A DNA stretch of 37,433 nt from a virus (IMGVR_UViG_2718217716_000005), one strand, 5' to 3'. Positions 1,150 through 29,827 are shown, numbered from the stretch's first letter. A program made the numbers and translations. Notes: generated by a model not told the origin, from the letters alone.

Positions 1150-1443
1150 ATGGACAATCATGTAACGACGAGAAATCGAAAAATGATTGAAAACGCGGAG
1201 ATCTATAATGATTATTTTTCCGATTATTCAGATGTCTGCAAATACAGTTCGAGTGCGGGAGAGTTCATATGCTTCAACTTTTTTATTAAATCTTATGTTT
1301 TTCCTCCACAGAAAGAAGATGGAGGTGTGCCACCTCCTGAAATCACTTTGCACCGTATAGCCTCCGTCTCAATGATGGAGCAACAGGCTAATGAGCTGTA
1401 TAGCATTCTGGGAATGATTCTACAAAAGCGTGAATCGGACTAA
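1150..1443 (+). CDS. Hypothetical protein (97 aa), low-GC, divergent from com-mom
   Basis: ATG at 1150 preceded by TAAGAGG at 5-nt spacing. Lower GC than the phage backbone. No recognisable motif. Confidence 0.45.
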   Translation: MDNHVTTRNRKMIENAEIYNDYFSDYSDVCKYSSSAGEFICFNFFIKSYVFPPQKEDGGVPPPEITLHRIASVSMMEQQANELYSILGMILQKRESD

Positions 1444-4621: not shown

Positions 4622-5143
4622 ATGCAACTGATTAATGTTAAACGATATTACCCGGAACACAAACCCTATGGTAATGATGTACAGTATTTTCAGAGTGATG
4701 ATGGTAAGGATTTCTATGAGTCCCTGCCATTATTCACCAAAAAATATAAACTTTGTATAACACCTGACAGCGGCGTTATCTGCTCAATATCACAGGACGC
4801 CTCGGCGCTGTATCCTGCGGGATTTTCCGTGGTTGAGACAGACGAACTCCCTGAAGGCACTGATATTTCAGGAAACTGGAAGTTTGATAATGGCATCATC
4901 TCACGGCTTCCGGTCAATTACGACAAAAAAGCGGAAGAACTGCGCCAGTCATATCTTAATCAGGCATATGAACAAATTAATGACTGGAGAACAGAACTAC
5001 AACTGGGCACCATCAGTGATGAAGACAGAGCAGCACTGGCACGATGGATGGCATACATCAGTCAGGTGAAAAAAATGGTATTACCCGCCATTAAAACTGA
5101 AGCTGAATTTAACGCCATTAAATGGCCTGAGCAGCCACAGTAA
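4622..5143 (+). CDS. Tail fibre assembly chaperone (Tfa family)
   Basis: C-terminus ...DEDRAALARWMAYISQVKKMVLPAIKTEAEFNAIKWPEQPQ and central DASALYPAGFSVVE / GNWKFDNG are typical of Tfa proteins. Start chosen at Met 4622; the ORF could begin at 4571 or 4610. Confidence 0.7.
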   Translation: MQLINVKRYYPEHKPYGNDVQYFQSDDGKDFYESLPLFTKKYKLCITPDSGVICSISQDASALYPAGFSVVETDELPEGTDISGNWKFDNGIISRLPVNYDKKAEELRQSYLNQAYEQINDWRTELQLGTISDEDRAALARWMAYISQVKKMVLPAIKTEAEFNAIKWPEQPQ

Positions 5144-5174: not shown

Positions 5175-6056
5175 TTATATACTTGCAGCCGTCACCCATG
5201 ATCCATTTAACAGATACTGCAACGGCCGGTAATACACGCCGCCGACGTTATCTGCCGTATTCTTACCGACATCCTGTACTTTAATTCCGGTAAGAACATT
5301 GCCGCCCCCCAGATTCAGATCCCAGCTTTCCCATGTTCCGGGCATATGTGCGGTCACCGACCCCAGTCTTATGGCGGTTACTGTTCCTGATGAGATAGTG
5401 ATATCCTGCGTCCCGTCAAAGGGAACACCATTAATTGTGTGGGCATTTGCCAGCCTGTTCGCGGCAACGGCCGTTCCGTTCGATGGCAGGGCATTCGCCG
5501 CCCTGTTTACCGTTTCCCGTAAACCGACGTTATCGATAAAAGCCCCTTTATTCGGAATGTCTGCGCCGTGCTGCTCCCTGCGCAGGTAACGGTTATCACC
5601 TTCGCTCTTGCTGTAAACATCCAGATTATTACGGGCGGTTACCTTATTCTCCAGGTCGGCGAGATTCTGATCCTTCGCCAGGGCATTAACGTCACCGGGA
5701 CCAAGACTGTTTTTTGTGGCAAGCGTCCCCAGACCAAGATAACCACGGGCAAGACGCTGGGCCTCCGCACCGGCATCAGCAATTTCTTTCAGGTTATTTT
5801 TCCGGGAAAAAGCATTCGCAGCGATAATGGCTTTAATGGACAGCGTAAGCTGGTTTAACTGCGCCTTATCCGGCTGAATATTGGCTTCAGCCAGAATATT
5901 CAGCAGTTCGGCCTGGAGAATATTCAGCCAGTCCTGACCAATCCAGCTGATACCTTTTTGTCCGTCACCTTCGGTAAACCAGGTGGTGGTATTACTCTGC
6001 GCCGGTGCCAGCGCAGGCATATTCGCCACGCCGGAATTATTATCAACATGAAACAT
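5175..6056 (-). CDS. Tail fibre protein (short, ~293 aa; Mu S position)
   Basis: Follows the baseplate genes with ATG overlapping the upstream stop. Gly/Asn/Thr-rich C-terminus and coiled segments typical of fibre distal domains. The ORF track extends to 6110 but the overlapping Met at 6054-6056 is preferred. Confidence 0.7.
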
Positions 6057-6616
6057 TAAATAGTCTCCTCTTCGTGGCTGTTTGCATACACGTAAATAAA
6101 CGTCTGCCATGCAGGTTTATAACGGTTCAGAATACATTCCAGCGCACCGCCTTCATAAATACGCAGCGGCGTGAGAATATCATCCAGCACATTCATGTTC
6201 CGGTAGCCGGTTTCACTGTTAATCGTGACAATACTGACCCACTGCGAATCCGGTGATGGCTGAATGTCAATCTGATAACCAAACTCCGCCGCAAACCGGA
6301 TATAAAATTCACGGTTCAGCGAGGGCTTCATCCGGTATTTATTTCCGGCATAACGCTGTCGCTCCGTTATGGTGGCTCCGGCCATATCACATTCAGGAAG
6401 GCCGAGATAACGCTCCCAGTCTTCCAGCAGCAGGCGCGACGTGTCAGGGAAACGCTCGGCAAGCAGCTGTTTACCCGTCCAGGAAACACGCGCTGTCGAA
6501 TGACTGAGGCCCAGACATAATGATGCCAGTACGGATGACGGACGCTTGTCCCATGCCAGCCCGTCAGGCAGTAACTGCAACAGGGCGCGCTGATGTGGGG
6601 TCAGGGTTACAGCCAT
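6056..6616 (-). CDS. Baseplate/tail protein (Mu gp48-like, DUF2313-type)
   Basis: Position between the baseplate J-like gene and the fibre; translation overlaps both neighbours. Confidence 0.6.
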
Positions 6617-16063: not shown

Positions 16064-16330
16064 ATGTCATCAGAAAATCAACCATCACCAGAGATTCAGT
16101 TCGCTCATGACCTTGTAAATGGGTTAGCTATTGCGGTGAATATTCTGATCCAGAAACTGGAACAGGACGGAACACTGTCCATGAATGAATTTCTGGACAA
16201 ACTTCGTCAGCAACACACTGGTTTACTCGCACAGAACCAGAAAACTATCGCTCATGGCGTCAACCTGCTTTTGGGATCGCTTGAGTATGTGACGACCACG
16301 AAGAGCGACCAGACAAATCAAGCTCACTAA
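16064..16330 (+). CDS. Hypothetical helical protein (88 aa), opposite-strand insertion inside the tail cluster
   Basis: ATG at 16064 preceded by TAAGGAG at 5-nt spacing. Lower GC than flanking genes. Followed by its own stem-loop. Confidence 0.55.
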   Translation: MSSENQPSPEIQFAHDLVNGLAIAVNILIQKLEQDGTLSMNEFLDKLRQQHTGLLAQNQKTIAHGVNLLLGSLEYVTTTKSDQTNQAH

Positions 16331-20597: not shown

Positions 20598-20718
20598 ATT
20601 GCCTCCGCATAAAGGATGAATATAAAATAAACAGGCGGTCAGTGTACGCTTAACTGGTAAAGTCGGTGCCTGCCTCCGGGTGGATCATGTATGCGGGTTC
20701 GACCCCCGCCACTGACCG

Positions 20719-27608: not shown

Positions 27609-28109
27609 TCAGACTTTCGGCAAATCGTAGCGACATAACCATTCATCCGCCGAACGGCGGGCCTCAAGGCCGGGGAGTTTTACCCCCTTTGAATAAATCC
27701 AGCGGATATACTGCTTACAGGACGCGGGCATCTGCCCGGCATTGATAAGGCGCAGGAGCGTGGAGTTGCGAAAGTTCGTTTCACCGGCCCAGAAAATCCA
27801 GGAGGCCAGCGCCACCGTCTGACCACGGGTAAGCGGCACCTGAACATGACGATCGATAGCCGCAAAGGCCCATTTCATGTCCTTTTCCAGCAGCTCCAGA
27901 CACTCTTCATCAGTTTTTGTCATACCCGGTTTCACATCCGGGCCGGTATGGCCGTAACAGATGGTGGGGGTGCCGGTGGGATCAATGTACGTGGTGTTTT
28001 CTTTCCCTTCCCAGTAGCCGGTGTAGTGCGTGGCAATGGTGAACGTCCCGGCTCCGGCCAGAACAAGGGCAATCAGCTTTTTACGCAGGGGTGCGGGGAG
28101 TTTTGGCAT
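27609..28109 (-). CDS. Endolysin, lysozyme-like with SAR-type N-terminal signal-anchor
   Basis: N-terminus KKLIALVLAGAGTFTIA is a Gly/Ala-rich weak transmembrane segment. Catalytic-region pattern E-x8-D-x5-T (YWEGK...DPTG.PTICYGHTG). Confidence 0.75.
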   Translation of the reverse strand: MPKLPAPLRKKLIALVLAGAGTFTIATHYTGYWEGKENTTYIDPTGTPTICYGHTGPDVKPGMTKTDEECLELLEKDMKWAFAAIDRHVQVPLTRGQTVALASWIFWAGETNFRNSTLLRLINAGQMPASCKQYIRWIYSKGVKLPGLEARRSADEWLCRYDLPKV

Positions 28110-28180: not shown

Positions 28181-28603
28181 TCAGAAAAGCCGGGGCTGCG
28201 TGCGTTCCTGATGCAGGCGGCGCTGGGTGCGGATAACGGAGTAAATCTGCGTCTCTGACATCTGGTAGTGGCGGCGCAGGGTTTCAATTTTTTCGCCCTG
28301 GCTCCAGCGGGAAAAAATTTCATTATTGCGCAGTTCGGTGAAAAGGGATTCACCGACCGGGAGATAATAACCACGCCCGCCCATGTACCCGGCCTGTGCG
28401 GCCGCAACTTTACGGGCAAGCATTCCCGCCTGAGCAGATTCAATCCCCTGACGGTGCAGTTCAGCACTGATCACATCAACCAGGTCCCGCAGCGTGCCGG
28501 GCCAGTTCTTTTTCAGCTCATCATCAGGAATGTCATCCAGACGGTCAATCAGCGCGTGCAGCTGTTCGCTGTCACCAAACATGCTCATCTGTGTTTCAGC
28601 CAT
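28181..28603 (-). CDS. Mor/C-family transcriptional activator (140 aa), the only member in the window
   Basis: Size and position directly upstream of lys. C-terminal helix-turn-helix-like IETLRRHYQMSETQIYSVIRTQRR, GGAGG ribosome-binding site. Confidence 0.7.
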   Translation of the reverse strand: MAETQMSMFGDSEQLHALIDRLDDIPDDELKKNWPGTLRDLVDVISAELHRQGIESAQAGMLARKVAAAQAGYMGGRGYYLPVGESLFTELRNNEIFSRWSQGEKIETLRRHYQMSETQIYSVIRTQRRLHQERTQPRLF

Positions 28604-28645
28604 ACCCGCCTCCGGTCATCATTACACAGGGCAAGTTTAAAATAA

Positions 28646-28669
28646 AAATCCCGCGCTGTGGCGGGATTT
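28646..28669. terminator. Hairpin aaatcccgc-gctgtg-gcgggattt (bidirectional terminator-like), left copy of a ~35-bp direct repeat
   Basis: 9-bp perfect stem flanked by A-run and T-run. Near-identical copy at 29291-29314. Confidence 0.6.
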
Positions 28670-28942
28670 AGGAATGTAACGAATAAACGAGCTTAACAAT
28701 ACCTGGACAAATATTGATCAGTTAATCGTGTAAGTGTATGATAAATATCATTTATTTATTCTTCTGAATATACCGATTGTTTTTTTACCACTGATGAGAT
28801 CATCACTGGTATATGCGAGCTGGTTGTCTTTAATTATCAAACATGCTTTGCCGTAAAAAAGCATGGAAAAAGACATAAAAACTAACGCTCTGAAGATAAC
28901 AAACCGTTCCTTTAACGTTTTTTTATACAGGACTATGTTCAT

Positions 28943-29284
28943 ATGACTTTTGGCCCCATCATTGAGTTTGAATCAGGCTATACCGATGACATGTACCAGT
29001 CCCTGCAGGATAATGGTATCAGATACACCCCTATTGCAGCTTTATCATACAATGTAACCGAAATGGTTGAGTTGCTCCATGCGGTTAACACGCCAGAAAC
29101 ATGGGCCGCTATTGTTCTCATCGTAAAAAAATGGATAAACCGACACAAGGATGCCAGTGTTGAATTAACCATGAATGAGAACGGGCAACTGACATCCGTA
29201 AAAATAAACGGCTACAACGTAAATGATCTGGATAAGCTTGGAGTACCCAGTTTGATTCGAGCTTCTTTTAAATCAGAGGAGTAA
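28943..29284 (+). CDS. Hypothetical protein (113 aa), opposite-strand low-GC insertion between GemA and the Mor/C activator
   Basis: ATG at 28943 after a very AT-rich 270-bp leader, followed immediately by a terminator hairpin. No recognisable motif. Confidence 0.6.
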   Translation: MTFGPIIEFESGYTDDMYQSLQDNGIRYTPIAALSYNVTEMVELLHAVNTPETWAAIVLIVKKWINRHKDASVELTMNENGQLTSVKINGYNVNDLDKLGVPSLIRASFKSEE

Positions 29285-29290
29285 AATAAG

Positions 29291-29314
29291 AAATCCCGCA
29301 CTGTGGCGGGATTT
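29291..29314. terminator. Hairpin aaatcccgc-actgtg-gcgggattt, right copy of the direct repeat
   Basis: Sits between the stop of the plus-strand gene (29284) and the stop of gemA (29318). Confidence 0.6.
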
Positions 29315-29317
29315 GGG

Positions 29318-29827
29318 TTAACAGGGGAATGATTTTTCATACAGCCTGCAAACGCGCTCATAACTCATCACTGCACGCTCCGACATATCCAGGGCTGCCA
29401 GCATTTTGCGGCGGTGCCAGCGTTTGAGACGCTCCAGCACATCAGAGGCCAGCTCGGGGTGTTGCTCCAGCCACTGCCAGTTAGCCACACCTTCGCCGCC
29501 GTTCTGCGCGGCCGTCTGCGATTTCACCCAGCGGTTAAGGGCCGTTTCCGCACCATCAGAAATAAAGCCCTGCCGGTGCATCACTTTCCAGATGGCGCGA
29601 ATTTTGGCGGTCACCGTACCCGGCTTTAAGGCCCGGTTAACCGGTTTCTGACGCACTTTAAAACCGCGTTTTTTGAAAACATCCAGTACGCGGGATAACT
29701 CATCCGGTGACATATCCCGGCAACTGGCTTTACCGGTGGCTGCCAGCAGTGCGGATGTATAGGTTTCATCATCCAGAGCAAGCTCGCGTTTTGCCACATG
29801 AATGGCAGATATCAGTTTTCCTCTCAT
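29318..29827 (-). CDS. gemA: GemA-like early regulatory protein
   Basis: 169-aa ORF with N-terminal pattern LISAIHVAKRELALDDETY...GKASCRDMSPDEL...FKKRGF typical of the Mu GemA family; last gene of the early block. Confidence 0.6.
   Translation of the reverse strand: MRGKLISAIHVAKRELALDDETYTSALLAATGKASCRDMSPDELSRVLDVFKKRGFKVRQKPVNRALKPGTVTAKIRAIWKVMHRQGFISDGAETALNRWVKSQTAAQNGGEGVANWQWLEQHPELASDVLERLKRWHRRKMLAALDMSERAVMSYERVCRLYEKSFPC

Follow-up and report, generated by a model that had tools for sequence, protein, structure and literature searches.

The whole stretch of 37,433 nucleotides (nt) of IMGVR_UViG_2718217716_000005, hereafter called the window, represents an entire Mu-like prophage with 100% identity to NZ_CP010183.1 (Escherichia coli M1/M3, mouse). 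At the junction between the gene for GemA/gp16 and the gene for a Mor/C-family late activator, this prophage harbours a cassette which is a moron-type insert with an unusual gene pair of predicted antisense coupling: a gene for a 113 amino acid (aa) protein on the plus strand and, divergent from it and with abutting start codons, a gene for a 64-aa protein on the minus strand (Table 1). The sequence features that define the cassette are real and lie far beyond chance. As to its function, we favour, at a confidence somewhat short of even, the view that the 113-aa product is a latent membrane effector of the EACC1 type in the lysogen, which is antisense-coupled to a small protein of the lytic phase.

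A preliminary description of the region, made from the nucleotide sequence, had noted a plus-strand gene of 113 aa between Mor and gemA, of opposite orientation and atypical composition, and had proposed it to be acquired cargo. The open reading frame (ORF) is there, starts with ATG and runs on the plus strand among phage genes of the minus strand, and the guanine-cytosine (GC) content of the insert interior is 0.375, compared with 0.539 for the window and 0.55–0.56 for the flanking Mor and gemA genes; only 0.4% of 611-base pair (bp) windows are as low in GC as the insert interior. Relatives that lack the insert, the comparison proposed at that time, are at hand with the loci L003, L004, L007 and L008, the latter two O157 Sp18-type prophages, in which gemA and Mor are ~70 bp apart as opposed to 714 bp here and which are ~644 bp shorter across the gemA/Mor junction. 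As the junction of the insertion falls within a repeat, its exact position cannot be placed. The flanking gemA/Mor junction is present in 231 of 5426 complete E. coli genomes, while the interior of the cassette occurs in two of the 5426, M1 and M3, and in none other. Four complete E. coli genomes carry a diverged alternative cassette of the L002 type, and all remaining junctions inspected (L003, L004, L007, L008) are empty with one hairpin each. Rather than being the same gene at the same place in all relatives, the cassette is restricted to M1 and M3 among the complete E. coli genomes, and its status as acquired, dispensable accessory cargo is supported. The L002 cassette encodes proteins of 140 aa (plus strand) and 78 aa (minus strand) between the same two hairpins. 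Its 140-aa protein aligns with the 113-aa family in hhalign (E 9e-5, 60% probability), the small ORFs of the two cassette types align as well, and phrog_12509, of unknown function, is weakly matched by both 113-aa-type and 140-aa proteins. Judged by these alignments, the L002 cassette is a diverged allele, a distant homologue pair of the same module.

The insert is bounded by two near-identical repeats of 34 nt in direct orientation (29 of 34 positions identical), each with a hairpin in which a perfect 9-bp stem, AAATCCCGC-N6-GCGGGATTT, encloses a 6-nt loop and which folds with −13 to −15 kcal/mol on either strand. These repeats and hairpins had been recognized correctly, and the hairpin pattern has its sole two matches in the window here, versus 0.01 expected by chance. 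The right repeat lies directly 3′ of the gemA stop codon on the minus strand and overlaps the TAA of the plus-strand gene; the A variant of its hairpin is also found in the right copy of the L002 cassette. The interpretation of the hairpins as private terminators of the acquired gene, on the other hand, had to be given up. The spacer of the empty sites (L003, L004; L007, L008) already holds one copy of exactly the same hairpin, and a terminator scan calls both hairpins on the minus strand, with tails UUUUUAUUUU or UUUCUUAUUUU after the stem, UUUUUAUUUU being the minus-strand tail of the left hairpin; the tails on the plus strand read AGGAAUG and GGGUUAAC. The presence of a single hairpin in empty sites and the U-tract on the minus strand therefore mark the hairpin as the phage's own post-gemA terminator or attenuator of the early transcript. 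Insertion either duplicated the hairpin or brought in a second copy.

The boundaries are not uniform among relatives, as the left hairpin copy in L005 and L006 is truncated within the hairpin, while L009 has a different hairpin and L013 no hairpin. In L010 and L012, extra hairpin copies of the form AAAATCCCGC-N6-GCGGGATTTT enclose two more, unrelated cargo genes, and since other cargos reside between the same hairpins, the post-gemA hairpin is a recurrent cassette junction. These additional cargos are a 144-aa minus-strand gene at 6331–6917 of L010, the product of which looks secreted by eye, and a 106-aa plus-strand gene at 4897–5374 of L012. The stem AAATCCCGC/GCGGGATTT is nucleotide-identical across the window, L002, L003–L006, L010 and L012, with cargo proteins that are 23–60% identical, and the hairpin loop alone varies between prophages (GCGCTG, GCACTG, GCGATA, GCAATT, GCGTTA). 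Such conservation of the stem seems to exceed the need of a generic terminator, and the hairpin may mark a recombination site. A scan of the region with Rfam returned terminator-like noise only.

The preliminary description had further assumed a single acquired gene preceded by an AT-rich leader of 270 bp. This assumption does not hold, as the leader encodes, on its minus strand, the conserved and previously missed 64-aa protein. Eight loci (window, L002, L005, L006, L009, L010, L013, L016) retain the small ORF uninterrupted, down to 23–33% protein identity, and its start codon abuts that of the large gene, as in the CATATG of the window, or overlaps it by 2 nt in every Mu-context relative examined. 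Between L005 and L006, the ratio of nonsynonymous to synonymous substitutions (dN/dS, Nei–Gojobori, NG86) is 0.07, and the differences at first, second and third codon positions amount to 7/3/19 between L005 and L006 and to 20/7/40 between the window and L005, while the remaining five frames of the same DNA show a ratio of ~1 or contain stops. This coding signal on the minus strand leads us to reject a single gene with a long leader. The 113-aa gene is coding as well (dN/dS 0.16, excess of third-position differences), so that, by these measures of selection, both cassette ORFs are real protein-coding genes.

The 64-aa protein is basic, with 12 lysine and arginine residues versus 4 aspartate and glutamate residues and a net charge of ~+8 (9–12 lysine and arginine residues across relatives), and possesses one hydrophobic stretch at residues ~14–37 with a 19-residue Kyte–Doolittle maximum of 1.5–1.9, followed by a conserved, hydrophilic C-terminal motif G.EL.SGKK.IG.F. 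A membrane-type protein is predicted. A reading as a lipoprotein was discarded, the lipobox-like VSGC being found in L010 only and the cysteine not being conserved. In RefSeq the small ORF is unannotated for strain M3, whereas its 78-aa counterpart in L002 is annotated. The locus tags of NZ_CP010183.1 skip from RG55_RS05315 (Mor) to RG55_RS05325 (113-aa gene), and a feature RS05320 may once have been called where the 64-aa ORF sits.

The family of the 113-aa protein is small. Of 5.8 billion proteins, three clusters belong to it, and when 1.84 billion representatives were searched exhaustively with its profile, six were recovered. Viral contigs yielded on scanning only two closely related loci of the 113-aa type and a single one of the 140-aa type, with none for P0007 or P0009, and neither cassette protein could be matched by tblastn in 50,697 phage records. 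Six of the seven lineages examined have the large gene within a Mu-like prophage, where it runs antisense to the phage genes next to the abutting small ORF. The gene is found between GemA and Mor in the window, L005, L006, L009, L010–12 and L016, while the L013/14 phage, which has both mor and C, carries it between C and lys. Scans of both cassette proteins with Pfam, NCBIfam, PHROGs and PADLOC found no family at threshold, and the sequence search of the PDB with the 113-aa family profile found nothing meaningful, so that the earlier statement that the product has no assignable motif stands in the sense that no library assigns a function at threshold. The N-terminal half of P0009 (L010–L012) gives a sub-threshold match to DUF6164 (E 1.2e-4, 22.5 versus 27 bits), a match that may point to a wider superfamily of ~110-aa proteins.

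A predicted sigma-70 promoter, TTGATC-17-TATGAT, precedes the 113-aa gene and is position-conserved as TTGATC-17-(T/C)ATGAT in five loci (window, L002, L005, L006, L016), with the −10 element ending at −201 to −204 from the plus-strand ATG in L002, L005, L006 and L016. Transcription would start at ~28749, with a predicted 5′ untranslated region (UTR) of ~195 nt. As this promoter lies just past the small ORF's stop codon, the 5′ UTR so predicted would be complementary to the small gene over its full length. By reading of the sequence, the AGGA of the plus-strand gene falls into codons 3–5 of the small ORF, and the small ORF has in every lineage a G-rich Shine–Dalgarno-like element 7–11 nt upstream of its ATG, inside the conserved Gly-Pro codons of the large gene. 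From the abutting starts, the mutual embedding of the Shine–Dalgarno elements and the overlap of the UTR, we infer that the two genes exclude each other in expression, according to the strand that is transcribed. With a predicted promoter of its own, the 113-aa gene should be active in the repressed prophage, and its expression in the lysogen is plausible. For the small ORF, as no position-conserved sigma-70 promoter was found, transcription would occur by read-through of the right hairpin, from the early operon or, in L013, from the middle operon, or from an unrecognised promoter. TTGATC (−35) and a conserved AAGATCGTTTT just after the −10 element each hold a GATC (Dam) site in most cassettes (window 28714–28755; L002 ~2110–2150; L005 ~5770–5810; L013 ~5770–5810), with the second site lost in the window (ATATCA); methylation-sensitive control of the predicted promoter is possible.

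A hint at a biochemical function comes from EACC1, a protein of ~110 aa with a conserved hydrophobic helix and alpha and beta extensions, the gene of which is paired with a gene for a caspase-like protease (PMC7159879). EACC1 is an autoinhibited monomer from which cleavage near Asp49 releases a toxic C-terminal fragment of 7.1 kDa that permeabilises membranes (bioRxiv 10.1101/2025.11.14.688446). Pfam EACC1 (PF19953) matches four of eight members of the 113-aa family in register (E 0.002–0.04), aligning residues ~43–101 with positions 50–105 of the 107 of the model. Compared by hhalign with a collection of 120 EACC1 proteins, the family gives a probability of 74% (E 2.8e-5) over 57 columns, in which residues 44–101 are paired with residues 54–110, the toxic fragment, of KrEACC1, the sequence of which was taken from the supplement of the same preprint. 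The hhalign score of 34.8 stands against a column-shuffle null with a mean of 12.9, a standard deviation of 2.4 and a maximum of 23.3, so that none of 200 shuffles reach it, and a reversed control scores 12.4. The two groups match in length (~112 aa; 111–115 aa in the family versus 112–114 aa in EACC1), and the similarity spans exactly the toxic C-terminal fragment. An NTPE/GTPA sequence occupies the kink position of the central helix, and the kink motif LGTPA is common to P0008 and the EACC1 relatives P0016 and P0017. An AlphaFold2 (AF2) model from an eight-sequence alignment shows in the 113-aa protein two helices, then an amphipathic/hydrophobic one kinked at NTPE, a pair of beta strands and a last helix. 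With the caution that the model is of low confidence, this resembles the EACC1 order of an N-terminal strand and helix, a kinked central hydrophobic helix, W-[LI]-x-R, two beta strands and a helix, including a small-residue or GTP kink in the central helix. The sensitive homology search recommended by the preliminary description yielded a sub-threshold similarity, and the AF2 model is too low in confidence for a fold search.

On the view that we favour, the course of events is as follows. A mobile two-gene accessory cassette inserted at the intrinsic post-gemA terminator, whereby the hairpin became duplicated. In the lysogen, the 113-aa gene alone would be made, from its own predicted promoter and against the direction of lytic transcription, and its product would serve defence or exclusion as a latent effector that permeabilises membranes, being probably a divergent relative of EACC1, the C-terminal helix and beta-hairpin of which form membrane pores after removal of an N-terminal inhibitory part. 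The two strands would interfere by transcriptional interference and by RNA duplexes that mask both ribosome-binding sites. Upon prophage induction, minus-strand read-through from the early operon would silence the 113-aa gene and produce the 64-aa protein, which would modulate or neutralise the 113-aa effector.

A number of results weigh against this reading. All Pfam EACC1 matches score 14–18 bits, below the gathering score of 23.6, and the 113-aa protein of the window itself has no EACC1 match in Pfam. The hhalign probability goes down to 53% once the 140-aa allele is added and is 11–36% with narrow EACC1 profiles. The hydrophobic helix is less pronounced than that of EACC1, with 19-residue hydropathy values of 1.1–1.45 versus 1.45–2.05, the polar linker cleaved in KrEACC1 has no counterpart in the 113-aa protein, and in none of the loci examined is a protease gene present in or beside the cassette. 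PADLOC gives no match for the cassette proteins, and the AF2 model has a mean predicted local distance difference test value (pLDDT) of 49. As a position-conserved sigma-70 promoter for the small ORF was not found, its expression is conjectural. The seventh lineage, P0008, from food-metagenome contigs (L019–21), is located outside a Mu-like context, with genes for YagK/YfjJ-type proteins, an acetyltransferase and DUF903 as neighbours (L019 3040–3920; L020, L021), and its small ORF is cut to 10 codons (MAIILSSTKR and a stop), which makes the pairing of the two genes typical, not obligatory. As to differences from EACC1, the family resides in enterobacterial Mu-like prophages, unlike the chromosomal EACC1 systems of multicellular bacteria, and the partner of the 113-aa protein is a 64-aa antisense-coupled protein, not an adjoining caspase-like protease gene. 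Homology of the 113-aa family to EACC1 appears roughly even to slightly better in probability, membership in the Pfam EACC1 family is not established, and the exclusion and defence functions that had been put forward as candidates gain some weight from the sub-threshold link.

The same geometry would be used differently by a type I-like toxin–antitoxin or addiction module, an unlikely reading that is nevertheless not far-fetched, in which the 64-aa protein would be the toxin and the 5′ UTR of the mRNA for the 113-aa protein, possibly aided by that protein, the silencing antitoxin, the cassette stabilising the prophage or aborting infection upon collapse of plus-strand transcription. A small, basic protein with one hydrophobic segment, a small coding region fully antisense under a predicted and position-conserved promoter and UTR, and the embedding of each ribosome-binding site in the other gene all agree with such a module, and type I loci such as hok/sok, ldr/rdl and tisB/istR likewise combine a small hydrophobic basic protein with an mRNA fully complementary to an opposite-strand transcript, a complementarity which in the cassette is predicted. 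With 63–78 aa and a conserved hydrophilic C-terminal motif, however, the small protein exceeds classical type I toxins in length and complexity, its maximum hydropathy of 1.5–1.9 is borderline for a transmembrane helix with an arginine inside the segment, and no promoter was found for the would-be toxin gene. Unlike in the type I loci, the antisense would here be the 5′ UTR of a conserved coding mRNA, and as the 113-aa ORF is under purifying selection, it is not merely the carrier of an antisense RNA; the large gene also persists alone in L019, where the small ORF is truncated. Rfam gave no match to an antisense-RNA family in the region.

Quite unlikely, in our estimate, is a function as an accessory to lysis timing, by which one or both proteins would depolarise the membrane and trigger the release of a signal-arrest-release (SAR) endolysin in a holin- or pinholin-like role. 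Mu has no holin and uses a SAR endolysin together with a DUF2730 releasin (PMC9239132), and genes for lysozyme, spanin and DUF2730 are present in the window; the cassette is always found just upstream of the lysis genes, with only Mor intervening in the window and with the small ORF of L013/14 directly upstream of and co-oriented with lys, and a pore former may be among the relatives of the 113-aa protein. Yet the cassette-free prophages inspected keep the full lysis cassette of lysozyme, spanin and DUF2730, the 113-aa gene is oriented against lytic transcription behind a promoter-like site of its own, the small protein contains a single hydrophobic stretch where pinholins have two, and neither cassette protein matches holin families. 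The similarity to the oligomerising C-terminal half of EACC1 and the lack of a protease partner in any locus could also indicate an anti-defence decoy, a mimic of the host effector which soaks up the protease or poisons pore assembly. This is very improbable, as EACC1 systems are reported mainly from actinobacteria and other multicellular bacteria and from proteobacteria no more than sporadically (PMC7159879), as orientation and promoter speak for expression in the lysogen and not early in the lytic cycle, and as the similarity itself is unproven. That the cassette is functionless, hitch-hiking DNA, a decaying remnant tolerated at a terminator region, would agree with its great rarity, the lack of any family at threshold and the loss of the small ORF in one lineage, but is scarcely to be expected in view of the strong purifying selection on both ORFs across lineages with saturated synonymous sites and of the conservation of pair, geometry and promoter-like site from ~23% to 60% protein identity.

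Among known elements, the cassette resembles morons in the sense of the Juhala/Hendrix concept (PMC4378225), being extra DNA of atypically low GC between genes that are adjacent in close relatives, with a promoter-like site, an end hairpin and an orientation as expected for expression from a repressed prophage. It differs in holding two divergent genes with abutting starts, not one ORF, in a bounding hairpin which is a duplicated resident phage terminator oriented for the opposite strand, and in that further cargos of relatives (L010, L012) are enclosed by the same hairpin. In the Pseudomonas Mu-like phage Fc02, exclusion genes overlap in antisense, olg1/olg2 versus gene 10, the lysogen expressing one strand and the induced phage the other, and a role in exclusion has been demonstrated (PMC9936078). 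As these too are accessory to a transposable phage and lie on opposite strands, they may serve by analogy as a functional precedent for the model of a lysogenic effector and a lytic small protein, although the Fc02 genes adjoin the repressor and ner, overlap rather than abut, and encode unrelated proteins.

If this model were correct, the range of the recently characterised EACC1 death effectors, chromosomal and coupled to proteases in multicellular bacteria, would widen to the cargo of enterobacterial prophages, an effector would be regulated without a protease, and the cassette would be a compact lysogeny/lysis toggle of two genes with their ribosome-binding sites inside each other. The further-reaching idea that it represents the first phage-borne, protease-independent effector of the EACC1 lineage, restrained by a genetic switch instead of a cleavable linker, armed in lysogens and disarmed for the phage's own induction, must be considered doubtful. 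Whatever the function, the conserved post-gemA hairpin is a recurrent entry point for differing cassettes in Mu-like prophages, and a small antisense gene had escaped both the preliminary reader of the sequence and the RefSeq annotation.

Table 1. Coordinates of the cassette, its bounding repeats and the neighbouring phage genes in the window.
Feature	Position	Strand	Remarks
Insertion relative to empty sites	28670–29314		645 bp; repeat start-to-start spacing 645
113-aa ORF (WP_053264796.1)	28943–29284	+	ATG start; between Mor and GemA genes, antisense to phage genes
64-aa ORF	28748–28942	−	ATG start; conserved ORF under purifying selection
Predicted sigma-70 promoter of the 113-aa gene	28714–28742	+	from consensus scan
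Left 34-nt repeat	28639–28672		hairpin 28646–28669, AAATCCCGC-GCTGTG-GCGGGATTT; same as the one hairpin at empty sites
Right 34-nt repeat	29284–29317		hairpin 29291–29314, loop GCACTG
Mor/C-family late activator gene (140 aa)	28181–28603	−	Pfam Mor E 6.5e-31; flank, not cargo
gemA/gp16 gene	29318–29827	−	Pfam GemA E 6.4e-30; flank; last gene before the terminator
Lysozyme gene	27609–28109	−	near the cassette, beyond the Mor gene

According to the RefSeq annotation, every phage gene from ner and the transposase through com/mom is encoded on the minus strand, and a single Mor/C-family gene is annotated. The location of the cassette had been compared with the place where Mu carries mor, which is correct as to the gemA/Mor junction and imprecise in that the phage lineage has this single Mor/C-family gene, which sits after the hairpin, whether the insert is present or not. 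The sole Mor/C-family activator thereby lies directly behind a strong-looking terminator, with a gap of ~42 nt (28604–28645) and no convincing promoter between. This is so even in the empty-site relatives, and in the window the gene lies behind two terminators and a predicted convergent promoter.

Besides the cassette, GC falls to the level of the insert in only one more place in the window, at 650–1600 (0.37–0.39), which contains an 86-aa hypothetical ORF (1183–1443, plus strand) between the com and DUF826 genes; this ORF, which has no Pfam match, is probably another moron. An 88-aa hypothetical gene of opposite strand (16064–16330, plus strand), also without a Pfam match, is found in the late region between the DUF2635 and DUF1834 genes, and RefSeq lists a ‘tRNA-OTHER’ at 20638–20717 (plus strand) between the genes for virion morphogenesis and minor head proteins. 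A second hotspot for cargo exists in relatives just upstream of gemA, where the window has none, and is occupied by differing opposite-strand genes (L006 6945–7355, L016 1705–2160, L004 2658–2897, L009 4969–5190, L013 9129–9488), two of which are weakly DUF2513-like (E 2e-4 and 1e-3).

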